NCBI RefSeq assembly: GCF_016026235.1
Contig: NZ_CP065613.1
Source: Escherichia coli
GTDB lineage: Bacteria; Pseudomonadota; Gammaproteobacteria; Enterobacterales; Enterobacteriaceae
Length of the DNA: 64,000 nt
Reading direction: 5' to 3' (one strand)
Positions 2,603 to 60,740 of the stretch are shown piece after piece. How positions within the stretch are numbered: position 1 is the stretch's first letter; each line of letters starts with the position of its first letter. Both the position numbers and the translations under genes were made by a program. The notes under the pieces are model-generated. The model saw only the letters and a program-made list of their open reading frames with translations. It was not told the origin of the DNA and searched no databases.

Positions 2603-4369
2603 TTAAATCTCCTCCTGACGATGGGCCAGTAATGTGGCGAATGGGCCACCAGCCACACTTAATTCCGCGTAACGTCCTTGCTCAATAATCCGGCCATCCT
2701 GCATAACCCAAATGACATCCCAGTCAGCAAGATCTTCTAACTGGTGGGTGACCATTAACGTTGTCTGGCGCAGAGAGGCGGCATTCAGCGCCTCCATTAC
2801 GCGCTGTTCACTGTGAGCATCAAGGCTGGCAGCGGGTTCATCCAACAGTAATAGCGAACAGGGATTTAGTAACGCACGGGCCACCGCCACGCGCTGCGCC
2901 TGCCCCACGGAAAGGCGGGCAGCCTGGTCGCCAACAGGCGTATCAACGCCTTGTGGCAGGAGCGGTAGAAACTCGCTGACCCAGGCGTTATCCAGCGCTG
3001 CTTGTAATTCATGTTCGCTGGCATCAGGTCGCGGCAGTAGTACGTTATCCCGTAATGTTGCTGCCGGTAATTGTGGATTTTGCCCAACCCAGGAGAGATG
3101 TTTACGCCATGATTCTGGTGATAAATCGCGTAATTCTATCCCGTTGATTCGTAGCGATCCCTGATATGAGAGAAAACCAGAAAGCGCGTTCAACAGTGAA
3201 CTTTTACCTGAACCGCTGCGACCAACCAACACGGCACGTTGGCCTGCTGGCAAAGTAAAGTTCAGCGGTCCGGCCAGCGTTTTACCTTCCGGCGACGTGA
3301 TAAACAGATCCTCGGCCTCAATGGTCACCGGAGCGGTCGATGCTAATTCCACCTCGCCACGCTGCGGATGGGCGAGCGGGGTTTCCATAAACGTTTTCAG
3401 ACTGTCAGCTGCACCAACAGCCTGGGCTTTAGCATGATAAAACGTACCGAGATCGCGTAATGGCTGGAAAAACTCTGGCGCAAGGATCAGGGCCAGAAAA
3501 CCCGCAGACAGCGTCACGCCAGTATCGTAGTGACCAAAATCCAGCTCGCCGAGATAGGAAAAACCAAAGTAGACCGCCACCAGAGCAATTGACAGCGAGG
3601 TAAAAAATTCGAGAATGCCGGAGGATAAAAATGCCAGCCGTAGCACTTCCATTGTCCGTTGGCGGAAATCTTCCGAAGCAGAACGAATACTTTCAATTTC
3701 AGCTTCACCACGACCAAAAATACGCAATGTTTCCATGCCGCGCAGGCGATCGAGGAAATGCCCACTTAAGCGAGCAAGAGCGAGAAAGTTACGTCGGTTA
3801 GCATCGGCAGCCCCCATTCCAACCAGCGCCATAAACAACGGAATTAACGGTGCAGTGCCCAGCAGAATGAGCGCCGCAGCCCAGTTTGAGGGGAAGATTG
3901 CCACCACAATCAGCAATGGCACCGACACTGCCAGCGCCATTTGCGGCAGGTAGCGTGCATAGTAATCATGCATATCGTCAATTTGCTCGAGTACCAGCGT
4001 CGCCCAGCTCCCCGCAGGTTTACCCTGAATCCACGCTGGCCCTGCTTGTTGCAGACGGTCGAGAACCTGCCGGCGGATGGCAAAGCGGATATGCTGCCCG
4101 GCGTGATAACCCACCCGTTCGCGTAACCAGACCACCCATGCGCGCAGTACAAAGGTCAGAACCAGTAACGTAAAGGGAAGCAGCAGGGCTTCACGGGGAA
4201 TATTCTCCATAATCATATGTTGCAGAATTCGCGCCATGAACCAGGCCTGGGCAATGATCAATATGCCGCTCACAAAGCCCAGCAGACGAGAAATATTCAG
4301 CCAACGTTGGGAGATGACGCTTTGCTGTTTTAACCAGCGGGTTAACTCTTTTTGACGAGATTTATTCAT
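2603..4369 (-). CDS. cydD: ABC transporter CydD
   Basis: 588-aa ORF, TMD plus ABC ATPase (GRSGSGKSS Walker A); partner of cydC. Confidence 0.93.
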   Translation of the reverse strand: MNKSRQKELTRWLKQQSVISQRWLNISRLLGFVSGILIIAQAWFMARILQHMIMENIPREALLLPFTLLVLTFVLRAWVVWLRERVGYHAGQHIRFAIRRQVLDRLQQAGPAWIQGKPAGSWATLVLEQIDDMHDYYARYLPQMALAVSVPLLIVVAIFPSNWAAALILLGTAPLIPLFMALVGMGAADANRRNFLALARLSGHFLDRLRGMETLRIFGRGEAEIESIRSASEDFRQRTMEVLRLAFLSSGILEFFTSLSIALVAVYFGFSYLGELDFGHYDTGVTLSAGFLALILAPEFFQPLRDLGTFYHAKAQAVGAADSLKTFMETPLAHPQRGEVELASTAPVTIEAEDLFITSPEGKTLAGPLNFTLPAGQRAVLVGRSGSGKSSLLNALSGFLSYQGSLRINGIELRDLSPESWRKHLSWVGQNPQLPAATLRDNVLLPRPDASEHELQAALDNAWVSEFLPLLPQGVDTPVGDQAARLSVGQAQRVAVARALLNPCSLLLLDEPAASLDAHSEQRVMEALNAASLRQTTLMVTHQLEDLADWDVIWVMQDGRIIEQGRYAELSVAGGPFATLLAHRQEEI

Positions 4370-4424
4370 TGCACGCTTAGCAGGTGAGTTATCAGAATTA
4401 TTTGCAGAGCAATGTTACAACGGG

Positions 4425-4462
4425 GAAAAAATAAAGGCGACCCATAGTCGCATGGTGTCGCC
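4425..4462 (-). terminator. Rho-independent terminator downstream of trxB
   Basis: GC-rich hairpin GGCGAC..GTCGCC followed by a T-run on the minus strand. Confidence 0.6.
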
Positions 4463-4491
4463 TTCTTTACTTTTGTTACTGATTTGTAAAA

Positions 4492-5574
<1,083 letters not shown>

Positions 5575-6001
5575 TCAAATTCTCCCGTCATTATCACCTC
5601 TGCTACTTAAATTTCCCGCTTTATAAGCCGATTAAATGATGAATAAACGCCCCTGTTAATGAATATCTGGCATGTTGTACTAAAAATCGATGTTTTGCTT
5701 TGACAATCCCCTAGTGTTTTGCGAAAACATTCGAGGAAGAAAAAAAACAGTATTCTTATATGCGCATAACCATGCATGTAAATACCATGTTTACCGTGCT
5801 AGTGAAATCTACGTATGGCGTGGACAGACGCCATTCGTGATGTCGATAGCTGCCACAAGGCAACGGTCTTCTCACCGTAGACCTAGGCATTGCGCGCCGT
5901 GAATCTTCATGATTTCGGTCTATCGTGACGGGTAGCGACTCTGAACAGTGATGTTTCAGGGTCAGACAGGAGTAGGGAAGGAATACAGAGAGACAATAAT
6001 A

Positions 6002-6496
6002 ATGGTAGATAGCAAGAAGCGCCCTGGCAAAGATCTCGACCGTATCGATCGTAACATTCTTAATGAGTTGCAAAAGGATGGGCGTATTTCTAACGTCGAG
6101 CTTTCTAAACGTGTGGGACTTTCCCCAACGCCGTGCCTTGAGCGTGTGCGTCGGCTGGAAAGACAAGGGTTTATTCAGGGCTATACGGCGCTGCTTAACC
6201 CCCATTATCTGGATGCATCACTTCTGGTATTCGTTGAGATTACTCTGAATCGTGGCGCACCGGATGTGTTTGAACAATTCAATACCGCTGTACAAAAACT
6301 TGAAGAAATTCAGGAGTGTCATTTAGTATCTGGTGATTTCGACTACCTGTTGAAAACACGCGTGCCGGATATGTCAGCTTACCGTAAGTTGCTGGGGGAA
6401 ACCCTGCTGCGTCTGCCTGGCGTCAATGACACACGGACATACGTTGTTATGGAAGAAGTCAAGCAGAGTAATCGTCTGGTTATTAAGACGCGCTAA
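6002..6496 (+). CDS. lrp: Leucine-responsive regulatory protein (AsnC family)
   Basis: ORF 5948..6496 trimmed to MVDSKKRPGKDLDRIDRNIL giving 164 aa; divergent from trxB with a long upstream regulatory region. Confidence 0.93.
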   Translation: MVDSKKRPGKDLDRIDRNILNELQKDGRISNVELSKRVGLSPTPCLERVRRLERQGFIQGYTALLNPHYLDASLLVFVEITLNRGAPDVFEQFNTAVQKLEEIQECHLVSGDFDYLLKTRVPDMSAYRKLLGETLLRLPGVNDTRTYVVMEEVKQSNRLVIKTR

Positions 6497-6630
6497 CACG
6501 GAACAGGTGCAAAATCGGCGTATTTTGATTACACTCCTGTTAATCCATACAGCAACAGTACTGGGGTAACCTGGTACTGTTGTCCGTTTTAGCATCGGGC
6601 AGGAAAAGCCTGTAACCTGGAGAGCCTTTC

Positions 6631-9600
6631 TTGAGCCAGGAATACACTGAAGACAAAGAAGTCACATTGACAAAGTTAAGTAGCGGCCGTCGCCTTCTGG
6701 AAGCGTTGCTGATCCTTATTGTCCTGTTTGCCGTCTGGTTGATGGCTGCCTTACTAAGCTTTAACCCTTCGGACCCCAGCTGGTCGCAAACGGCCTGGCA
6801 TGAACCTATCCATAATTTAGGTGGGATGCCCGGTGCGTGGCTGGCAGATACGCTGTTCTTTATTTTTGGCGTGATGGCTTACACCATTCCCGTCATTATT
6901 GTCGGCGGTTGTTGGTTTGCCTGGCGTCATCAGTCCAGTGACGAATACATTGATTATTTTGCCGTTTCGCTACGCATCATTGGCGTTTTGGCGCTCATCC
7001 TTACCTCCTGTGGTCTGGCGGCAATCAACGCTGACGATATCTGGTATTTTGCCTCCGGTGGCGTCATTGGCAGCTTACTAAGCACTACGCTACAACCACT
7101 GCTACACAGTAGCGGGGGAACTATTGCGCTGCTCTGCGTTTGGGCTGCGGGCCTGACGCTGTTCACCGGTTGGTCATGGGTGACCATTGCTGAAAAACTC
7201 GGCGGCTGGATTTTAAACATTCTCACCTTCGCTAGTAATCGTACCCGTCGCGATGATACCTGGGTCGATGAAGATGAATATGAAGATGACGAAGAGTATG
7301 AAGATGAAAACCACGGCAAACAGCATGAATCACGCCGTGCCCGTATTCTTCGCGGCGCGCTAGCGCGTCGTAAACGGTTGGCGGAAAAATTCATTAATCC
7401 GATGGGGCGGCAAACAGACGCTGCGTTGTTCTCCGGTAAGCGGATGGATGATGACGAAGAGATTACCTACACTGCACGCGGTGTGGCTGCCGACCCGGAC
7501 GACGTCCTATTTTCGGGCAATCGTGCAACGCAGCCAGAATATGACGAATACGATCCATTATTAAACGGTGCGCCAATTACCGAACCTGTCGCTGTGGCAG
7601 CTGCTGCTACCACGGCGACACAAAGCTGGGCTGCGCCGGTTGAACCTGTGACTCAGACGCCGCCTGTTGCCTCTGTTGATGTTCCACCTTCGCAACCTAC
7701 AGTAGCCTGGCAGCCTGTACCGGGTCCACAAACGGGAGAGCCGGTTATTGCTCCTGCACCGGAAGGTTACCCACAGCAGTCACAATATGTGCAGCCTGCA
7801 GTGCAATATAATGAGCCGCTGCAACAACCAGTACAGCCGCAGCAGCCGTATTATGCACCTGCAGCTGAACAACCTGCGCAACAACCTTACTACGCTCCTG
7901 CGGCGGAACAACCTGTTCAGCAACCGTATTACGCCCCTGCGCCAGAACAACCGGTGGCAGGTAACGCCTGGCAAGCCGAAGAGCAGCAATCCACTTTTGC
8001 TCCACAGTCTACATACCAGACTGAGCAAACTTATCAGCAACCAGCCGCTCAGGAGCCGTTGTACCAACAGCCGCAATCCGTTGAACAGCAGCCTGTTGTG
8101 GAGCCTGAACCCGTTGTAGAAGAGACAAAACCCGCGCGTCCGCCGCTTTACTATTTTGAAGAAGTGGAAGAGAAGCGAGCCCGTGAACGTGAACAACTTG
8201 CGGCCTGGTATCAACCGATTCCAGAACCGGTTAAAGAACCAGAACCGATCAAATCTTCGTTGAAAGCGCCTTCTGTTGCAGCAGTACCTCCAGTAGAAGC
8301 CGCTGCCGCTGTTTCTCCGCTGGCATCTGGCGTGAAAAAAGCGACACTGGCGACGGGGGCTGCCGCAACCGTTGCCGCGCCAGTCTTCAGTCTGGCAAAT
8401 AGCGGTGGACCGCGTCCGCAAGTCAAAGAGGGGATTGGCCCGCAGTTGCCACGACCGAAACGTATCCGCGTGCCAACTCGTCGTGAACTGGCGTCTTACG
8501 GTATTAAGCTGCCCTCACAGCGTGCGGCGGAAGAGAAAGCCCGTGAAGCCCAGCGCAATCAGTATGATTCTGGCGATCAGTATAACGATGATGAAATCGA
8601 TGCGATGCAGCAGGATGAACTGGCACGTCAGTTCGCCCAGACACAGCAGCAACGCTATGGCGAACAGTATCAACATGATGTGCCCGTAAACGCAGAAGAT
8701 GCAGATGCTGCGGCAGAGGCTGAACTGGCTCGTCAGTTTGCGCAAACTCAACAACAACGTTATTCCGGCGAACAACCGGCTGGGGCGAATCCGTTCTCGC
8801 TGGATGATTTTGAATTTTCGCCAATGAAAGCGTTGCTGGATGATGGTCCACACGAACCGTTGTTTACGCCAATTGTTGAACCTGTACAGCAGCCGCAACA
8901 ACCGGTTGCACCGCAGCAGCAGTATCAGCAGCCACAACAGCCGGTTGCGCCACAGCAGCAATATCAGCAGCCGCAACAGCCGGTTGCGCCGCAGCCGCAG
9001 TATCAGCAGCCACAACAGCAGGTTGCGCCGCAGCCACAATATCAGCAGCCGCAACAACCGGTTGCGCCACAGCAGCAATATCAGCAGCCGCAACAACCGA
9101 TTGCGCCACAGCAGCAATATCAGCAGCCGCAACAACCAGTTGCGCCGCAGCCGCAGTATCAACAGCCGCAACAACCGGTTGCACCGCAGCAGCAGGATAC
9201 CCTGCTTCATCCGCTGTTGATGCGTAATGGCGACAGCCGTCCGTTGCATAAACCGACGACGCCGCTGCCTTCTCTGGATTTGCTGACACCGCCGCCGAGC
9301 GAAGTGGAGCCGGTAGATACCTTTGCGCTTGAACAAATGGCTCGCCTGGTGGAAGCGCGTCTGGCTGATTTCCGTATTAAAGCCGATGTCGTCAATTACT
9401 CTCCGGGGCCGGTTATCACTCGCTTTGAACTTAACCTGGCTCCTGGCGTAAAAGCGGCGCGCATTTCTAACTTGTCACGGGACCTTGCCCGTTCACTTTC
9501 GACGGTGGCGGTGCGTGTCGTTGAAGTTATTCCTGGCAAACCCTATGTAGGTCTGGAGTTACCAAATAAAAAACGACAAACCGTTTATCTGCGCGAAGTT

Positions 9601-30974: not shown

Positions 30975-31172
30975 CAGCAAAAATATCGGTTTTTTGGTAA
31001 TAATCCGAGAGATTCTGTTGTGTGACGCGTGCCGCATTTTTGCCCTCAACGGTTTTACCCATTGCGATGCGTGTCACTGAATGATAAAACCGATAGCCAC
31101 AGGAATAACATATTACCCGCGGTCGCAATCGATTGACTGGGGGTTAATGGCAACGCAACGTGGTGAGGGGAA

Positions 31173-32261
31173 ATGGCTCAAATCTTCAATTTTAGTTCTG
31201 GTCCGGCAATGCTACCGGCAGAGGTGCTTAAACAGGCTCAACAGGAACTGCGTGACTGGAACGGTCTTGGTACGTCGGTGATGGAAGTGAGTCACCGTGG
31301 CAAAGAGTTCATTCAGGTTGCAGAGGAAGCCGAGAAGGATTTTCGCGATCTTCTTAATGTCCCCTCCAACTACAAGGTATTGTTCTGCCATGGCGGCGGT
31401 CGCGGTCAGTTTGCTGCTGTTCCGCTGAATATTCTCGGTGATAAAACCACCGCAGATTATGTTGATGCCGGTTACTGGGCGGCAAGTGCCATCAAAGAAG
31501 CGAAAAAATACTGCACGCCTAATGTCTTTGACGCCAAAGTGACTGCTGATGGTCTGCGCGCGGTTAAGCCAATGCGAGAATGGCAACTCTCTGATAATGC
31601 TGCTTATATGCATTACTGCCCGAATGAAACCATCGACGGTATCGCCATCGACGAAACGCCAGACTTCGGCAAAGATGTGGTGGTCGCCGCCGACTTCTCT
31701 TCAACCATTCTTTCCCGTCCGATTGACGTTAGCCGTTATGGCGTGATTTACGCTGGCGCGCAGAAAAATATCGGCCCGGCAGGCCTGACAATCGTCATCG
31801 TTCGTGAAGATTTGCTGGGCAAAGCGAATATCGCGTGTCCGTCGATTCTGGATTATTCCATCCTCAACGATAACGGCTCCATGTTTAACACGCCGCCGAC
31901 ATTTGCCTGGTATCTGTCTGGTCTGGTCTTTAAATGGCTGAAAGCGAACGGCGGTGTAGCTGAAATGGATAAAATCAATCAGCAAAAAGCAGAACTGCTG
32001 TATGGGGTAATTGATAACAGCGATTTCTACCGCAATGACGTGGCGAAAGCTAACCGTTCGCGGATGAACGTACCATTCCAGTTGGCAGACAGTGCGCTTG
32101 ACAAATTGTTCCTTGAAGAGTCTTTTGCTGCAGGCCTTCATGCACTGAAAGGTCACCGTGTGGTCGGCGGAATGCGCGCGTCCATTTATAACGCCATGCC
32201 GCTGGAAGGCGTTAAAGCGCTGACAGACTTCATGGTTGAGTTCGAACGCCGTCACGGCTAA
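31173..32261 (+). CDS. serC: Phosphoserine aminotransferase
   Basis: 362-aa ORF recognised as SerC ([15 protein letters not shown]). Confidence 0.95.
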
Positions 32262-32280
32262 TGCCGAAATTTTGCTTAAT

Positions 32281-32310
32281 CCCCACAGCCAGCCTGTGGG
32301 GTTTTTATTT
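32281..32310 (+). terminator. Intra-operon hairpin/attenuator between serC and aroA
   Basis: CCCCACAGCCagCCTGTGGGG followed by tttttatttc. Confidence 0.6.
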
Positions 32311-32331
32311 CTGTTGTAGAGAGTTGAGTTC

Positions 32332-33615
32332 ATGGAATCCCTGACGTTACAACCCATCGCTCGTGTCGATGGCACTATTAATCTGCCCGGTTCCAAGAGC
32401 GTTTCTAACCGCGCTTTATTGCTGGCGGCATTAGCACACGGCAAAACAGTATTAACCAATCTGCTGGATAGCGATGACGTGCGCCATATGCTGAATGCAT
32501 TAGCAGCGTTAGGGGTAAGCTATACGCTTTCAGCCGATCGTACGCGTTGCGAAATTATCGGTAACGGCGGTCCATTACACGCAGAAGGTGCCCTGGAGTT
32601 GTTCCTCGGAAACGCCGGAACGGCAATGCGTCCGCTGGCGGCAGCTCTTTGTCTGGGTAGCAATGATATTGTGCTGACCGGTGAGCCGCGTATGAAAGAA
32701 CGCCCGATTGGTCATCTGGTGGATGCGCTGCGCCTGGGCGGGGCGAAGATCACTTACCTGGAACAAGAAAATTATCCGCCGTTGCGTTTACAGGGCGGCT
32801 TTACTGGCGGCAACGTTGACGTTGATGGCTCCGTTTCCAGCCAATTCCTCACCGCACTGTTAATGACTGCGCCTCTTGCGCCGGAAGATACGGTGATTCG
32901 TATTAAAGGCGATCTGGTTTCTAAACCTTATATCGACATCACACTCAATCTGATGAAGACGTTTGGTGTTGAAATTGAAAATCAGCACTATCAACAATTT
33001 GTCGTAAAAGGCGGGCAGTCTTATCAGTCTCCGGGTACTTATTTGGTCGAAGGCGATGCATCTTCGGCTTCTTACTTTCTGGCAGCAGCAGCAATCAAAG
33101 GCGGCACTGTAAAAGTGACCGGTATTGGACGTAACAGTATGCAGGGTGATATTCGCTTTGCTGATGTGCTGGAAAAAATGGGCGCGACCATTTGCTGGGG
33201 CGATGATTATATTTCCTGCACGCGTGGTGAACTGAACGCTATTGATATGGATATGAACCATATTCCTGATGCGGCGATGACCATTGCCACGGCGGCGTTA
33301 TTTGCAAAAGGCACCACCACGCTGCGCAATATCTATAACTGGCGTGTTAAAGAAACCGATCGCCTGTTTGCGATGGCAACAGAACTGCGTAAAGTCGGTG
33401 CGGAAGTAGAAGAGGGGCACGATTACATTCGTATCACTCCACCGGAAAAACTGAACTTTGCCGAGATCGCGACATACAATGATCACCGGATGGCGATGTG
33501 TTTCTCGCTGGTGGCGTTGTCAGATACACCAGTGACGATTCTTGATCCCAAATGTACGGCCAAAACATTTCCGGATTATTTCGAGCAGTTGGCGCGGATT
33601 AGCCAGGCAGCCTGA
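32332..33615 (+). CDS. aroA: 3-phosphoshikimate 1-carboxyvinyltransferase (EPSP synthase)
   Basis: 427-aa ORF recognised as AroA ([23 protein letters not shown]). Confidence 0.95.
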
Positions 33616-33661
33616 ATGAACAACGGGCAATAAATAGCCAAATCTTTCTTTATCAAAACGT

Positions 33662-33674
33662 CGGCACATTGTCG
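33662..33674. repeat. 13-bp target-site duplication, left copy, of IS4 copy 1 (cggcacattgtcg)
   Basis: Identical 13-mer directly abuts both ends of the element (second copy at 35101..35113). Confidence 0.85.
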
Positions 33675-35100
33675 TAATGCCAGTCAGTTAAGCAACTGAC
33701 TGGCTCTTTTTCGGGGCTGTGGGGTATTTCCAGGGCCTCTCCTTTACCACTCTCGGGAAGGCCCTTCCCCTTCTCGTCGGTAATTTCACAAGTTGTCCCA
33801 TACTTGCAAGATCGCGCATCAGCTCCGGTATACGTCCCGGTGAAGCGCCCTGCAATGTCATCAGCATTCTCATCACCATTCCGCATGATTCTGAGAAACT
33901 CAGTTGATTCGGCCAGTAACCTTTCAGATGTTCCGCCATTTTAATCATCTGATATCTCACCAGATTATAAGCCAGTAAGACACCCCACAGCTCTTGCTCC
34001 ACAAGCTCCGGCTTTTTACTTCTCAGCGTCAGCCTGCTCAGTTGCATCGTCTGTTTTATCTCCCTGTATCCCAGTTCGATTTCCCAGCGATGACTGTACA
34101 GATCCGCCATTTCTCCTCCGGGGAAGCGCATGGCGTCCGTCATCGACGTCAGCAGATGGCAGACTTTTCCTTTGCGCGTCACGGTCAGCAGGCGGGCTGT
34201 CACTTCATTTCCCAGTCCCGGCCACTTTTTTCGTGCCTGCGGGCTGGTTTTCAGCTTCACCAGATGATCGCCTTTACCCAGTTTTCTGAGCTCTTCATAT
34301 TGCGCTCCCTTTCTGAGAGGTATCATCCAGTGGCGGTGTTCTCCCGCCAGGCTCCAGGCATTTAACAGTCCCAGTGAGTAATAACCTTTATCCATTAACG
34401 TCAGAGTGTTATCGCCGGTTTGTTCTATAAGTTGCTCAGCAAGCTCATTTTCGCTGTTCTTCATCGTGCCGAAGGCTGCAGCCGTCAGCAGATGGCTGGT
34501 CAGTTCCATCTGGCAGACCATTTTGACCTGCGGGTAGAGCGCCGGGTTCCCGGCATGTGTCTGGCGGGGGAAGGCTGCATCGTTCTCTGGTGTATCCGGT
34601 GTGCGCCAGAACACACCATCGATGGCCAGCAGGGTCAGGCCGCACCAGTGCGGATGCGGCGTGGCGTTATGCCAGAGCTGCGCTGTTTTCGTGAACACGC
34701 GGCGGACAGCCTCACTTCCCAGGCGCTGGCGGGCCTGAATAACGGCACTGGGGGCAACGAAGGGGCGATTGCCCGGCAGCATGATGTCCAGGCGATTCAC
34801 AATCTGGTGAAGAGGTTCTTTACGCTCAAGCGCCATGCCAACAATACACCAGACCATCATTTCGAGGGGAAGACGGCGCTTGCGTAGCGTTACAGTACCT
34901 GATTCGGCAAGGCAACGAGAGATGAGTTCGGGGTCGAGGTAATCCCCCAGAGAAGTCAGTGGGTTACGCAGAGAATCGTAACGGGATACCAGATCAAGAG
35001 CCTGTCCAATGTGCATAAAAAAATCCGGAAACAAGTGAGCGTTTCCGGATTCTTACACAGCCACTGGATCGGTCAACTGATCCTTAACTGATCGGCATTA
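33675..35100 (-). mobile_element. Insertion sequence IS4, copy 1 (1426 bp)
   Basis: Imperfect 18-bp terminal inverted repeats (TAATGCCAGTCAGTTAAG / TAATGCCGATCAGTTAAG), single DDE transposase ORF, flanking 13-bp direct repeats; interrupts the aroA-loiP intergenic region. Confidence 0.93.
33688..35016 (-). CDS. insG: IS4 transposase
   Basis: 448-aa ORF (to 35034); 442 aa from the Met at [10 protein letters not shown]; recognised as IS4 family transposase. Confidence 0.9.
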
Positions 35101-35113
35101 CGGCACATTGTCG
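35101..35113. repeat. 13-bp target-site duplication, right copy, of IS4 copy 1
   Basis: cggcacattgtcg immediately after the right IR. Confidence 0.85.
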
Positions 35114-35222
35114 GCGTTTTTTTTCGGACCTTGTGAGTCATTTTGATTAATGGTAGCGTCGCTTGTCAATGTAATTTGTTGATACATAATATTTATATAT
35201 GATTAATCAACGGATGATTCAC

Positions 35223-35987
35223 ATGAAGAATACTAAATTACTGCTGGCGATTGCGACCTCTGCAGCATTACTGACAGGGTGTCAAAATACCCACGGTATT
35301 GATACCAATATGGCTATCAGCTCCGGTTTAAATGCCTATAAAGCAGCAACATTAAGCGATGCCGATGCAAAAGCGATTGCCAATCAGGGCTGTGCCGAAA
35401 TGGACAGCGGCAATCAAGTCGCAAGTAAATCCAGCAAGTACGGTAAACGTCTGGCAAAAATCGCCAAAGCATTGGGTAACAATATTAATGGCACGCCGGT
35501 CAACTATAAGGTTTATATGACCAGCGACGTCAACGCATGGGCGATGGCGAACGGCTGTGTCCGTGTCTACAGTGGCCTGATGGACATGATGAATGACAAC
35601 GAAATTGAAGGTGTTCTGGGCCATGAACTGGGCCACGTCGCGTTGGGTCACTCGCTGGCTGAAATGAAAGCTTCTTATGCGATCGTTGCCGCACGCGATG
35701 CCATTTCAGCTACCAGCGGTGTGGCTTCCCAGCTTTCCCGCTCACAATTGGGTGATATCGCAGAAGGCGCTATTAATGCTAAATACTCCCGTGATAAAGA
35801 GTCCGAAGCAGATGATTTCTCCTTTGATCTGTTGAAGAAACGTGGCATCAGCACCCAGGGGCTGGTTGGCAGCTTTGAAAAACTGGCTAGTCTGGATGGC
35901 GGTCGCACCCAGTCCATGTTTGACTCTCACCCACCATCAACAGAGCGTGCGCAACACATCCGTGATCGTATCGCCTCTGGTAAGTAA
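35223..35987 (+). CDS. loiP: Outer-membrane metalloprotease LoiP (YcaL; M48 family lipoprotein)
   Basis: ORF trimmed to MKNTKLLLAIATSAALLTGC (lipobox) giving 254 aa; HELGH zinc motif. Confidence 0.9.
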   Translation: MKNTKLLLAIATSAALLTGCQNTHGIDTNMAISSGLNAYKAATLSDADAKAIANQGCAEMDSGNQVASKSSKYGKRLAKIAKALGNNINGTPVNYKVYMTSDVNAWAMANGCVRVYSGLMDMMNDNEIEGVLGHELGHVALGHSLAEMKASYAIVAARDAISATSGVASQLSRSQLGDIAEGAINAKYSRDKESEADDFSFDLLKKRGISTQGLVGSFEKLASLDGGRTQSMFDSHPPSTERAQHIRDRIASGK

Positions 35988-36159
35988 ATCATTGTCATCT
36001 TTCGGGCTGGTCTTCTGCCAGCCCGCTATAATTGCGCAATAAATCCCCATCTGAATACAGACAAAACTGGTTTTTGCACACAACGTTAACGATTTGTGGC
36101 GTCGGCGCGTATAATGCGCGCGGTTATGTTAACGGTACGCCTGTTTTAAGGAGATAAAG

Positions 36160-36843
36160 ATGACGGCAATTGCCCCGGTTATTACCATTGATGGCCCAAG
36201 CGGTGCAGGGAAAGGCACCTTGTGTAAGGCTATGGCGGAAGCATTGCAATGGCATCTGCTGGATTCGGGTGCAATTTATCGCGTACTGGCATTGGCGGCA
36301 TTACATCACCATGTTGATGTTGCGTCAGAAGATGCGCTGGTACCGCTGGCATCCCATCTGGATGTACGTTTTGTGTCAACCAATGGCAATCTGGAAGTGA
36401 TCCTCGAAGGGGAAGATGTCAGCGGCGAAATTCGTACTCAGGAAGTGGCGAATGCAGCTTCACAAGTCGCGGCATTCCCACGCGTTCGTGAAGCATTATT
36501 GCGTCGCCAACGCGCGTTTCGCGAATTACCAGGCCTGATTGCCGATGGCCGCGACATGGGAACAGTGGTATTCCCTGATGCGCCAGTGAAAATTTTCCTT
36601 GACGCCTCCTCGGAAGAACGTGCGCATCGCCGCATGCTACAGTTGCAGGAGAAGGGCTTTAGTGTTAACTTTGAGCGCCTTTTGGCCGAGATCAAAGAAC
36701 GCGACGACCGCGATCGTAACCGAGCGGTAGCGCCACTGGTTCCGGCAGCCGATGCTTTAGTGTTGGATTCCACCACCTTAAGCATTGAGCAAGTGATTGA
36801 AAAAGCGCTACAATACGCGCGCCAGAAATTGGCTCTCGCATAA
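36160..36843 (+). CDS. cmk: Cytidylate kinase
   Basis: 227-aa ORF, P-loop GPSGAGKGT. Confidence 0.95.
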
Positions 36844-36953
36844 GCGACCGAATTTGCAGTACCCCCGTTGCAATGGAATGACAGCGGGTATGTTAAACAA
36901 CCCCATCCGGCATGGAGCCAGGTGGACGTTAAATATAAACCTGAAGATTAAAC

Positions 36954-38627
36954 ATGACTGAATCTTTTGCTCAACTCTTTGAAGAGTCCTTAAAAGAAAT
37001 CGAAACCCGCCCGGGTTCTATCGTTCGTGGCGTTGTTGTTGCTATCGACAAAGACGTAGTACTGGTTGACGCTGGTCTGAAATCTGAGTCCGCCATCCCG
37101 GCTGAGCAGTTCAAAAACGCCCAGGGCGAGCTGGAAATCCAGGTAGGTGACGAAGTTGACGTTGCTCTGGACGCAGTAGAAGACGGCTTCGGTGAAACTC
37201 TGCTGTCCCGTGAGAAAGCTAAACGTCACGAAGCCTGGATCACGCTGGAAAAAGCTTACGAAGATGCTGAAACTGTTACCGGTGTTATCAACGGCAAAGT
37301 TAAGGGCGGCTTCACTGTTGAGCTGAACGGTATTCGTGCGTTCCTGCCAGGTTCTCTGGTAGACGTTCGTCCGGTGCGTGACACTCTGCACCTGGAAGGC
37401 AAAGAGCTTGAATTTAAAGTAATCAAGCTGGATCAGAAGCGCAACAACGTTGTTGTTTCTCGTCGTGCCGTTATCGAATCCGAAAACAGCGCAGAGCGCG
37501 ATCAGCTGCTGGAAAACCTGCAGGAAGGCATGGAAGTTAAAGGTATCGTTAAGAACCTCACTGACTACGGTGCATTCGTTGATCTGGGCGGCGTTGACGG
37601 CCTGCTGCACATCACTGACATGGCCTGGAAACGCGTTAAGCATCCGAGCGAAATCGTCAACGTGGGCGACGAAATCACTGTTAAAGTGCTGAAGTTTGAC
37701 CGCGAACGTACCCGTGTATCCCTGGGCCTGAAACAGCTGGGCGAAGATCCGTGGGTAGCTATCGCTAAACGTTATCCGGAAGGTACCAAACTGACTGGTC
37801 GCGTGACCAACCTGACCGACTACGGCTGCTTCGTTGAAATCGAAGAAGGCGTTGAAGGCCTGGTACACGTTTCCGAAATGGATTGGACCAACAAAAACAT
37901 CCACCCGTCCAAAGTTGTTAACGTTGGCGATGTAGTGGAAGTTATGGTTCTGGATATCGACGAAGAACGTCGTCGTATCTCCCTGGGTCTGAAACAGTGC
38001 AAAGCTAACCCGTGGCAGCAGTTCGCGGAAACCCACAACAAGGGCGACCGTGTTGAAGGTAAAATCAAGTCTATCACTGACTTCGGTATCTTCATCGGCC
38101 TGGACGGCGGCATCGACGGCCTGGTTCACCTGTCTGACATCTCCTGGAACGTTGCAGGCGAAGAAGCAGTTCGTGAATACAAAAAAGGCGACGAAATCGC
38201 TGCAGTTGTTCTGCAGGTTGACGCAGAACGTGAACGTATCTCCCTGGGCGTTAAACAGCTCGCAGAAGATCCGTTCAACAACTGGGTTGCTCTGAACAAG
38301 AAAGGCGCTATCGTAACCGGTAAAGTAACTGCAGTTGACGCTAAAGGCGCAACCGTAGAACTGGCTGACGGCGTTGAAGGTTACCTGCGTGCTTCTGAAG
38401 CATCCCGTGACCGCGTTGAAGACGCTACCCTGGTTCTGAGCGTTGGCGACGAAGTTGAAGCTAAATTCACCGGCGTTGATCGTAAAAACCGCGCAATCAG
38501 CCTGTCTGTTCGTGCGAAAGACGAAGCTGACGAGAAAGATGCAATCGCAACTGTTAACAAACAGGAAGATGCAAACTTCTCCAACAACGCAATGGCTGAA
38601 GCTTTCAAAGCAGCTAAAGGCGAGTAA
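36954..38627 (+). CDS. rpsA: 30S ribosomal protein S1
   Basis: 557-aa ORF with repeated S1 domains; high codon bias. Confidence 0.97.
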
Positions 38628-55809: not shown

Positions 55810-55822
55810 GCACATTACGGCG
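55810..55822. repeat. 13-bp target-site duplication, left copy, of IS4 copy 2 (gcacattacggcg)
   Basis: Identical 13-mer at 57249..57261 directly after the right IR. Confidence 0.85.
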
Positions 55823-57248
55823 TAATGCCAGTCAGTTAAGCAACTGACTGGCTCTTTTTCGGGGCTGTGGGGTATTTCCAGGGCCTCTCCTTTACCACTC
55901 TCGGGAAGGCCCTTCCCCTTCTCGTCGGTAATTTCACAAGTTGTCCCATACTTGCAAGATCGCGCATCAGCTCCGGTATACGTCCCGGTGAAGCGCCCTG
56001 CAATGTCATCAGCATTCTCATCACCATTCCGCATGATTCTGAGAAACTCAGTTGATTCGGCCAGTAACCTTTCAGATGTTCCGCCATTTTAATCATCTGA
56101 TATCTCACCAGATTATAAGCCAGTAAGACACCCCACAGCTCTTGCTCCACAAGCTCCGGCTTTTTACTTCTCAGCGTCAGCCTGCTCAGTTGCATCGTCT
56201 GTTTTATCTCCCTGTATCCCAGTTCGATTTCCCAGCGATGACTGTACAGATCCGCCATTTCTCCTCCGGGGAAGCGCATGGCGTCCGTCATCGACGTCAG
56301 CAGATGGCAGACTTTTCCTTTGCGCGTCACGGTCAGCAGGCGGGCTGTCACTTCATTTCCCAGTCCCGGCCACTTTTTTCGTGCCTGCGGGCTGGTTTTC
56401 AGCTTCACCAGATGATCGCCTTTACCCAGTTTTCTGAGCTCTTCATATTGCGCTCCCTTTCTGAGAGGTATCATCCAGTGGCGGTGTTCTCCCGCCAGGC
56501 TCCAGGCATTTAACAGTCCCAGTGAGTAATAACCTTTATCCATTAACGTCAGAGTGTTATCGCCGGTTTGTTCTATAAGTTGCTCAGCAAGCTCATTTTC
56601 GCTGTTCTTCATCGTGCCGAAGGCTGCAGCCGTCAGCAGATGGCTGGTCAGTTCCATCTGGCAGACCATTTTGACCTGCGGGTAGAGCGCCGGGTTCCCG
56701 GCATGTGTCTGGCGGGGGAAGGCTGCATCGTTCTCTGGTGTATCCGGTGTGCGCCAGAACACACCATCGATGGCCAGCAGGGTCAGGCCGCACCAGTGCG
56801 GATGCGGCGTGGCGTTATGCCAGAGCTGCGCTGTTTTCGTGAACACGCGGCGGACAGCCTCACTTCCCAGGCGCTGGCGGGCCTGAATAACGGCACTGGG
56901 GGCAACGAAGGGGCGATTGCCCGGCAGCATGATGTCCAGGCGATTCACAATCTGGTGAAGAGGTTCTTTACGCTCAAGCGCCATGCCAACAATACACCAG
57001 ACCATCATTTCGAGGGGAAGACGGCGCTTGCGTAGCGTTACAGTACCTGATTCGGCAAGGCAACGAGAGATGAGTTCGGGGTCGAGGTAATCCCCCAGAG
57101 AAGTCAGTGGGTTACGCAGAGAATCGTAACGGGATACCAGATCAAGAGCCTGTCCAATGTGCATAAAAAAATCCGGAAACAAGTGAGCGTTTCCGGATTC
57201 TTACACAGCCACTGGATCGGTCAACTGATCCTTAACTGATCGGCATTA
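55823..57248 (-). mobile_element. Insertion sequence IS4, copy 2 (1426 bp), identical to copy 1 and in the same orientation
   Basis: Same terminal IRs and identical 448-aa ORF translation as copy 1; own 13-bp direct repeats; interrupts the mukB-ldtD intergenic region. Confidence 0.93.
55836..57164 (-). CDS. insG: IS4 transposase
   Basis: Translation identical to the copy-1 transposase ORF. Confidence 0.9.
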
Positions 57249-57261
57249 GCACATTACGGCG
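57249..57261. repeat. 13-bp target-site duplication, right copy, of IS4 copy 2
   Basis: gcacattacggcg immediately after the right IR. Confidence 0.85.
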
Positions 57262-60700: not shown

Positions 60701-60740
60701 CATAAAAAAGCCCGCTTTTCAGCGGGCTTCATTGTTTTTA
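60701..60740 (-). terminator. Hairpin terminator between convergent gloC and aspC
   Basis: aaaaaAGCCCGCttttcaGCGGGCTtcattgttttt; T-runs on both strands. Confidence 0.75.

Follow-up and report, generated by a model that had tools for sequence, protein, structure and literature searches.

In the 64,000-nucleotide stretch of Escherichia coli DNA analysed here (the window), a complete IS4 element occupies the centre of a terminator-like palindrome downstream of aroA, at a site that IS4 has entered at least five times independently. We consider it very probable (roughly 0.9) that IS4 insertion into this palindrome, guided by the target rule of the element, explains the arrangement as a whole. Public genomes, IAI39 and NCTC86 among them, already have annotated insertions of this kind at the same site. 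What is added here is that the site is a recurrent hotspot, predictable from sequence and located in a terminator-like palindrome, and that the window holds a second, identical copy of the element. In the literature searched, no earlier report of IS4 at aroA/ycaL was found. The features on which the argument draws are the following.

32332-33615, plus strand: aroA (3-phosphoshikimate 1-carboxyvinyltransferase), a 427-aa ORF, named from the RefSeq annotation of matching loci
33655-33661: A-run half of the palindrome, AAAACGT, now the left target arm (sequence; hairpin fold of the empty site)
33662-33674: left copy of the target-site duplication, CGGCACATTGTCG (direct-repeat search)
33675-33692: IS4 end distal to the transposase start, terminal inverted repeat, 16 of 18 positions matching the opposite end
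33679-33711, plus strand: 11-bp hairpin followed by TCTTTTT, just inside the IS end and facing aroA transcription (terminator-like scan call; stable junction fold)
33688-35016, minus strand: CDS of the IS4 transposase (InsG-type), from the ATG at 35016, 442 aa plus stop
35019-35054, minus strand: hairpin in the transposase leader, with a T7 run between it and the ATG (inverted repeat; fold -35 kcal/mol, z -6.8)
35049-35076, minus strand: candidate transposase promoter, TTGACC-16-AAGAAT, with TG (consensus scan only)
35083-35100: IS4 end proximal to the transposase start, terminal inverted repeat, 16 of 18 positions matching the opposite end
35101-35113: right copy of the target-site duplication, CGGCACATTGTCG, 100% identical to the left copy
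35114-35124: T-run half of the terminator, GCG plus T8, now the right target arm (sequence)
35163-35207, plus strand: ycaL promoter region, downstream of IS4 (scan; genomic SELEX list)
35223-35987, plus strand: ycaL (M48 outer-membrane lipoprotein metalloprotease), start equivalent to that of K-12 b0909, RefSeq name
55823-57248, minus strand: second IS4 (55810-57261 with its duplications), 100% identical to the first copy (self-comparison)

The element at 33675-35100 (1426 bp, minus strand) is a complete IS4. Over its full length it is 99.5-100% identical to RefSeq-annotated IS4, and full IS4 copies are present in 2,479 of the 5,426 complete E. coli genomes; RMDEC465, a high-copy strain, has 31. 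The terminal inverted repeats are 18 nt long and imperfect, with 16 of 18 positions matching (TAATGCCAGTCAGTTAAG vs TAATGCCGATCAGTTAAG). The transposase frame, which ends at 33688, is intact from its ATG, and an alternative TTG start at 35034 would yield a protein of 448 aa. The protein passes the NCBIfam model NF033592 ("IS4 family transposase") with 303.8 bits (cut-off 115), and Pfam recognizes Nterm_IS4 (PF13006, E 7.6e-33) as well as DDE_Tnp_1 (PF01609, E 1e-31), the latter as a full-length model match. Its Y(2)R(3)E(6)K motif, a hallmark of the IS4 family (PMC2266710), is intact at residue 307. Comparisons with RefSeq, K-12, NCBIfam and Pfam all returned IS4, the assignment made in the earlier note.

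The closest well-described relative is the IS4 of K-12 (mobile element with insG, b4278, 4,502,090-4,503,515 of NC_000913.3), which has the same length of 1426 bp, 18-bp inverted repeats and a single DDE transposase of 442 aa, and which differs from the window copy at 6 of 1426 nucleotides (1420 identical) and at 4 of the 442 residues of InsG. Its duplication likewise falls inside the 11-13 bp range, and its target likewise carries A-run and T-run arms. In contrast, the K-12 element sits between yjgZ and nanX instead of aroA and ycaL, its duplication measures 12 bp rather than the 13 bp of the window aroA site, and its target forms a poorer hairpin (z -0.9 vs about -4). Combining near-identity at the DNA level, terminal inverted repeats, a DDE reading frame, the YREK motif, a duplication of 11-13 bp and symmetric A-run/T-run arms, the window element is an ordinary intact IS4 of the IS4 family, IS4 subgroup. 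The copy is apparently functional, judging from its intact ORF and ends and from the 100% identical second copy 20.7 kb away. Identical copies also occur in EIEC-like strains. A search for Rfam families in 31000-37500 gave no hit at E values up to 0.1.

The insertion site can be reconstructed precisely. IS4 starts 59 nt behind the aroA stop codon (33613-33615), aroA being the last gene of the serC-aroA unit, and ends 122 nt before the ycaL ATG (35223). Removing the element together with one repeat copy leaves an aroA-ycaL spacer of 168 nt, which is the spacer found without any IS in K-12 MG1655 (aroA end 960095, ycaL start 960264), and the in-silico empty site departs from K-12 by a single substitution, at window position 35175. 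When rebuilt as a 513-bp sequence, the empty site was found unbroken in 4,955 of 5,426 complete E. coli genomes (91%). Save for the two IS4 copies the window is collinear with K-12 926,594-987,774, and it contains no other IS. The description given in the earlier note, namely a complete 1426-bp IS4 with 18-bp imperfect inverted repeats, an intact transposase ORF, a perfect 13-bp direct repeat, distances of 59 and 122 bp to the neighbouring genes, and a restored 168-bp spacer corresponding to the K-12 arrangement, is reproduced by these measurements. The name that it gave to the downstream gene, loiP, has to be corrected: the gene is ycaL (b0909), and LoiP is its paralogue YggG. HtpX, YcaL, LoiP (YggG) and BepA are four distinct M48 proteases of E. 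coli (PMC7950410). The NCBIfam model for LoiP scores YcaL above its cut-off (414 bits vs 365), which may be the source of the mix-up.

In its uninterrupted form, the target reads AAAACGTCGGCA-CAT-TGTCGGCGTTTTTTTT and, read onward, AAAACGTCGGCA-CAT-TGTCGGCGTTTT followed by more T. Folded as RNA, the empty site forms a 12-bp hairpin of -14 kcal/mol (z -4.0 to -4.2, none of 200 shuffles equally stable) that begins 39 nt past the aroA stop and is directly followed on its 3' side by the T8 stretch, a U-run in the transcript. The 13 duplicated bases are the exact centre of this hairpin, with an arm of 7 nt on either side. A G+C-rich hairpin and a U-run downstream of a gene, the sequence criterion for an intrinsic terminator, are thus both present at the target, which we presume to be the bidirectional terminator of serC-aroA and at which termination is predicted. 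A serC-aroA terminator was reportedly published by Duncan and Coggins in 1986. The right half that remains beside the element, a stem of 5 bp with T8 behind it, is no more stable in folding than shuffled sequence (z 0.12), yet it is flagged by the consensus terminator scan, and the same scan flagged no terminator in the intact empty site of K-12. This miss looks like a limit of the scanner, as the stem, extended through A-T pairs, uses up the T-run. The terminator call at the aroA target depends on the rule used, scan or fold; folding, not the consensus scan, served as the basis for the hairpin described here.

We next consider how often this position is occupied. Queries spanning the left and right junctions detected IS4 here, in the orientation of the window, in 39 of 5,426 complete E. 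coli genomes, and a chimeric junction query detected the opposite orientation in 68. In total, 107 genomes (about 2%) are occupied, in both orientations, a figure that counts genomes and not events, many of them being clonal (for example seven 2020S05-013 isolates). The earlier note had given the uninterrupted spacer as the K-12 arrangement, which stands, with 4,955 of 5,426 genomes empty; the insertion is not particular to one strain, recurring at exactly this position in the 107 complete genomes. Genomes as distant in background as IAI39/CE10 and NCTC86 are among those occupied. Twelve occupied loci, six per orientation, were compared in detail. In all 12 the IS ends at the identical base and the 13-bp duplication has the identical register, while the host allele within the duplication is either TGTCG or TGCCG, the left arm is either AAAACG or AAAGACG, and the IS4 copies have 3-16 nt differences to that of the window. 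Because orientation, allele and left arm combine differently among these 12 loci, at least five independent insertions have occurred at the aroA-ycaL site.

Three public loci closely resemble that of the window: IAI39 (NC_011750.1), NCTC86 (NZ_CP019778.1) and 14EC029 (NZ_CP024141.1) have IS4 at the identical position, in the identical 13-bp register and in the identical orientation, and loci of this type carry the RefSeq label "IS4-like element IS4 family transposase". Unlike the window, however, the same-orientation loci of other strains have IS4 copies that differ by 4-16 nt from the window's, some loci lie on the TGCCG allele or the AAAGACG arm, the copy of MS20645 is frameshifted, and the flanks are only 94-99.8% identical to those of the window. 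Run against the complete E. coli genomes, the junction queries had no match at 100% (best 99.6% and 99.8%), and the best 25-kb matches to the window in that set reached about 99%.

A single ancient insertion, passed on vertically and lost from most E. coli including K-12 by precise excision, would likewise place the element at one position with one 13-bp duplication in 12 of 12 loci and in distant backgrounds. We regard this history as highly improbable. The two orientations (39 vs 68 genomes) are impossible to derive from one ancestral event, the local host allele is present in both copies of the 13-bp duplication, no more than about 2% of genomes carry the insertion, against 4,955 in which the site is cleanly empty, and a target matrix trained independently of this locus accounts for the position. 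Precise excision of IS elements is rare, which also counts against such a history.

The target matrix derives from metagenome contigs, which were scanned with a degenerate pattern for both IS4 termini. This non-random sample gave at least 120 loci; the loci listed supplied 143 ends and 80 unique flanks, which were reduced to 73 distinct half-sites after near-duplicates had been collapsed. Among the matches listed, the 73 half-sites are marked by an A-run covering -21 to -16 (counted from the IS end), with A at -18 in 86%, and 62 of the 73 contain AAA within -24 to -14 as compared to 16% of random control positions. These listed half-sites are moreover C-rich at -12, -10 and -9 and prefer G at -4, -3 and -1, position -1 being G in 79% and never A. 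In the last 11-13 nt, which correspond to the duplication, the outer four pairs are fully complementary in 33% of the listed half-sites vs 1% of controls. Both half-sites of the window aroA site carry the A-run.

Full targets could be rebuilt in 13 cases, with duplications of 12 bp in seven, 13 bp in four and 11 bp in two. Eight of the 13 fold with z < -2, several of them in the manner of classic terminators, for example AAACGGCCCCTTCTGGGGCCGTTTTTT. Poor hairpins are formed by the K-12 IS4 site (z -0.9) and by the mukB site of the window (z -0.8), both of which keep the arms. Since these two sites retain the arms but fold poorly, the arms look like the constant feature and terminators like their commonest carriers, so that "terminator targeting" would be a correlate and not the rule itself. 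A consensus of the form 5'-AAA-N20-TTT-3' was reportedly described by Mayaux et al. in 1984 (Gene) for IS4 in the pheST attenuator. The empty aroA site, AAAACGT[13 bp]GCGTTTT, follows this form with an A-run, about 20 nt and a T-run, as does the rule re-derived from the 73 half-sites among the matches listed, which differs in adding G/C preferences within the duplication.

The rule was then applied to the window as a prediction. A log-odds matrix was trained on the 73 metagenome half-sites only, and the aroA-site insertion is absent from the 80 unique metagenome flanks among the matches listed. Both half-sites were scored, at duplication lengths of 11-13 bp, across the window from which both IS4 copies had been removed in silico (183,222 candidates at about 61,000 positions, mean -20.2, sd 8.9). 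The aroA-ycaL site ranked 5th with a score of 20.6. The top rank, with a score of 27.4, went to the mukB-ldtD site, the seat of the second IS4.

This second IS4, absent from the earlier note, lies 20.7 kb downstream in the same orientation as the first, between the mukB stop (55744) and ldtD (57444), and has its own 13-bp duplication, GCACATTACGGCG, at 55810-55822 and 57249-57261. Its target, AAAAAAGTG[13]CGCTTTTC, has the core GGCACATT in common with the aroA site. Between the two IS4 lie 20,722 bp with ycaL, cmk, rpsA, ihfB, ycaI, msbA, lpxK, ycaQ, ycaR, kdsB, ycbJ, elyC, cmoM and mukFEB. We rejected a composite transposon in which the two direct IS4 copies moved the ycaL-to-mukB segment as a unit. 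Two identical direct copies bracketing 20,722 bp would be its signature, but each copy has a perfect duplication of its own, with different outer flanks (CGGCACATTGTCG towards aroA, GCACATTACGGCG towards ldtD), the segment occupies its native position, collinear with K-12, other genomes have just one of the copies, and one assembly has an empty mukB site; the odds of such a transposon are accordingly minimal. Different outer flanks, and collinearity of the rest of the window with K-12, identify the two copies as separate insertions. In CRE444-like genomes, the ycaL-mukB segment is found in an IS4-bounded inversion.

At mukB-ldtD, 19 genomes are occupied in the window orientation and about two in the opposite one. 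Many draft contigs, about 20.8-21.2 kb long, encode a MukB protein exactly like that of the window, draft assemblies of this lineage breaking at IS4. One draft contig extends past mukB into the end of IS4 and is identical in sequence to the window, and one assembly with an identical MukB has an empty mukB-ldtD site. These data support a recent, lineage-level polymorphism at the mukB-ldtD site. They also bear on the idea that a repeat consensus was pasted into two assembly gaps, for which the 100% identity of the copies and the breaking of draft assemblies at IS4 could be cited. Such an artefact is scarcely credible, given that each copy has the correct site-specific 13-bp duplication, both sites fit the target rule, the mukB contig is an independent witness of the junction, and closed genomes exist with IS4 at both sites. 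We regard the insertion as recent, in agreement with the earlier note, because the two window copies are 100% identical and the mukB-ldtD site is empty in an assembly with identical MukB.

The preferred reading, insertion of IS4 into the aroA palindrome through its target rule, would proceed as follows. The element would have transposed by DDE cut-and-paste, with staggered target cuts 13 bp apart, and integrated at the centre of the palindromic terminator-like sequence behind aroA. The choice of site would follow a strict symmetric rule, with an A-run 16-21 nt outside one end, the mirror T-run beyond the other and G/C preferences inside the duplication, and bidirectional intrinsic terminators would be the E. 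coli sequences that most often satisfy it. The aroA-ycaL position has been struck independently several times, in both orientations. While splitting the aroA terminator, the insertion would likely have a small effect, given inward-facing hairpin and T-run ends and an untouched ycaL promoter region.

Terminator-like sequences are enriched beside ISs in general, according to a preprint. The arrangement resembles that of IS200/IS605 elements, which are found next to terminators, and of ISPpu9, which is found in REP sequences, in having an intergenic palindromic target, in sparing genes and in carrying a terminator-like sequence beside the transposase gene. IS4 moves by DDE cut-and-paste and leaves 11-13 bp duplications, whereas IS200/IS605 elements use a single-strand mechanism without duplication.

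Structures within the IS ends point to what the insertion may do to its neighbours. The hairpin at 33679-33711 could act as a substitute terminator for aroA transcripts. At the other end, the leader hairpin may block read-through expression of the transposase from outside: the -10 of the candidate transposase promoter lies inside the 5' arm of this hairpin, so that transcripts made by the IS itself would lack the hairpin and read-through transcripts would form it. Protection against outside activation is known from other IS elements, and the leader arrangement of IS4 resembles theirs. As terminator-like structures face inward at each of its ends, IS4 could, whichever way round it lies, stand in for the terminator that it destroys.

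On the ycaL side, the sigma70-like promoter candidate listed in the earlier note as retained is indeed in place (TTGTCA-16-CATAAT, 35163-35190, matching at 10 of 12 positions) and occurs in K-12 as well. A second promoter sequence, TTGATA-17-ATTAAT, lies at 35179-35207 and was assigned by genomic SELEX to the aroA>ycaL spacer as a constitutive RpoD promoter for ycaL (PMC3946193). Because the ycaL promoter region is intact and inward hairpin/T-run structures are present at both IS ends, the insertion is probably near-neutral, with a small effect on aroA and ycaL.

Were the recurrence instead mainly a product of selection, on aroA 3'-end processing or on ycaL expression, target preference would be secondary. 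The 107 genomes occupied at the aroA site exceed the 19 plus two at the higher-scoring mukB-ldtD site, and the aroA terminator is destroyed. We nevertheless find this unlikely, although less so than the alternatives discussed above. Both orientations are present, from which differing transcriptional consequences would be expected, and the ycaL promoter region is intact. The published screens cited by PMC11481492 gave no clear phenotype for loss of ycaL. Finally, the empty site is kept in 91% of genomes, and the occupied counts are inflated by clonal isolates.

The same observations allow a bolder proposal, which we offer tentatively and at somewhat less than even odds. IS4 may be a dedicated "terminator-swapping" element, the transposase of which recognizes the A-run/T-run arms of bidirectional intrinsic terminators and integrates at the hairpin centre, and the ends of which, each with an inward-facing hairpin and T-run, functionally replace the host terminator in either orientation. 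If so, its insertions would have next to no effect on the host, would arise in parallel again and again in different strains and could be foretold from sequence, and recombination substrates would arise as a side effect, the inversion in CRE444-like genomes being an example.

Established knowledge of IS4 is unchanged by these results, the value of which lies mostly in annotation and typing. The IS4 insertions at aroA-ycaL and mukB-ldtD are presence/absence polymorphic markers between strains, they interrupt assemblies of short reads, leaving contigs of about 21 kb, and parallel insertions at such hotspots can be misread as common descent. The two copies, direct and identical, constitute a substrate for duplication or amplification of the bracketed segment, in which the essential genes rpsA, msbA, lpxK and kdsB lie, and relatively inverted copies, as found in other genomes, support inversion. 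A small but usable result is that, by means of the quantitative target matrix, IS4 insertion sites become predictable from sequence.

The window carries a second complete IS4, identical to the copy between aroA and ycaL (100%) but flanked by its own 13-bp duplication, GCACATTACGGCG, and inserted at the site that scores highest of all the IS4 targets predicted in the window by a log-odds target matrix. Five further sites within the top seven of this ranking are unoccupied.

IS4 copy and unoccupied predicted target sites (window coordinates)
55823-57248 (55810-57261 with duplications), same orientation as the first IS4: second complete IS4, between mukB and ldtD
24735: unoccupied predicted IS4 target site
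39102: unoccupied predicted IS4 target site
14267: unoccupied predicted IS4 target site
63781: unoccupied predicted IS4 target site
60713: unoccupied predicted IS4 target site

All five unoccupied sites have a terminator-like arrangement of A-run, hairpin and T-run, and the matrix predicts them as future IS4 landing sites.

Compared to K-12, the aroA-ycaL spacer differs solely at 35175 (T in the window, G in K-12), a position located within the spacer of the candidate promoter TTGTCA-16-CATAAT and 4 nt upstream of the TTGATA hexamer of the SELEX-listed RpoD promoter. The YcaL protein encoded downstream (35223-35987) scores 414 bits against the NCBIfam model NF052399 'metalloprotease LoiP', above its cut-off of 365, and this match may give rise to misnamed annotations. 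Despite this score, YcaL and LoiP (YggG) are regarded as distinct paralogues. Elsewhere, a tandem repeat at 8887-9194 (39-bp unit, 7.9 copies, 89% matches) corresponds to the K-12 ftsK position and codes for a Q/P-rich repeat; at this point the window is ~74-78 bp longer than K-12, or about two additional units. At ~60709-60719, between gloC and aspC, ~160 bp of K-12 (984,321-984,482) are missing, probably reflecting variation of an intergenic repeat element.

A MukB protein exactly matching that of the window is present on many contigs of ~20.8-21.2 kb, a size equal to the spacing of the two IS4 copies in the window. For comparison, we used draft loci L137, L138 and L139, from assemblies GCA_902503985.1 and GCA_001907535.1 and run SRR13627093. 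The L138 contig runs into IS4 exactly as the window sequence does, and terminates within the element. L137 encodes the same MukB and has an empty mukB-ldtD site, so presence of the second insertion varies within the lineage.

In several complete genomes (comparison locus L136, NZ_CP166764.1, CRE444, positions 2908-8500; search matches H99-H111 vs H166-H177), one IS4 has aroA next to one of its ends and an inverted mukB next to the opposite end, whereas P27_L1_05.20 and 23CRST004 retain the uninverted ycaL-to-mukB arrangement. From the former configuration it follows that the ~20.7-kb ycaL-to-mukB segment was inverted when IS4 copies lying in opposite orientations at the two hotspots recombined.
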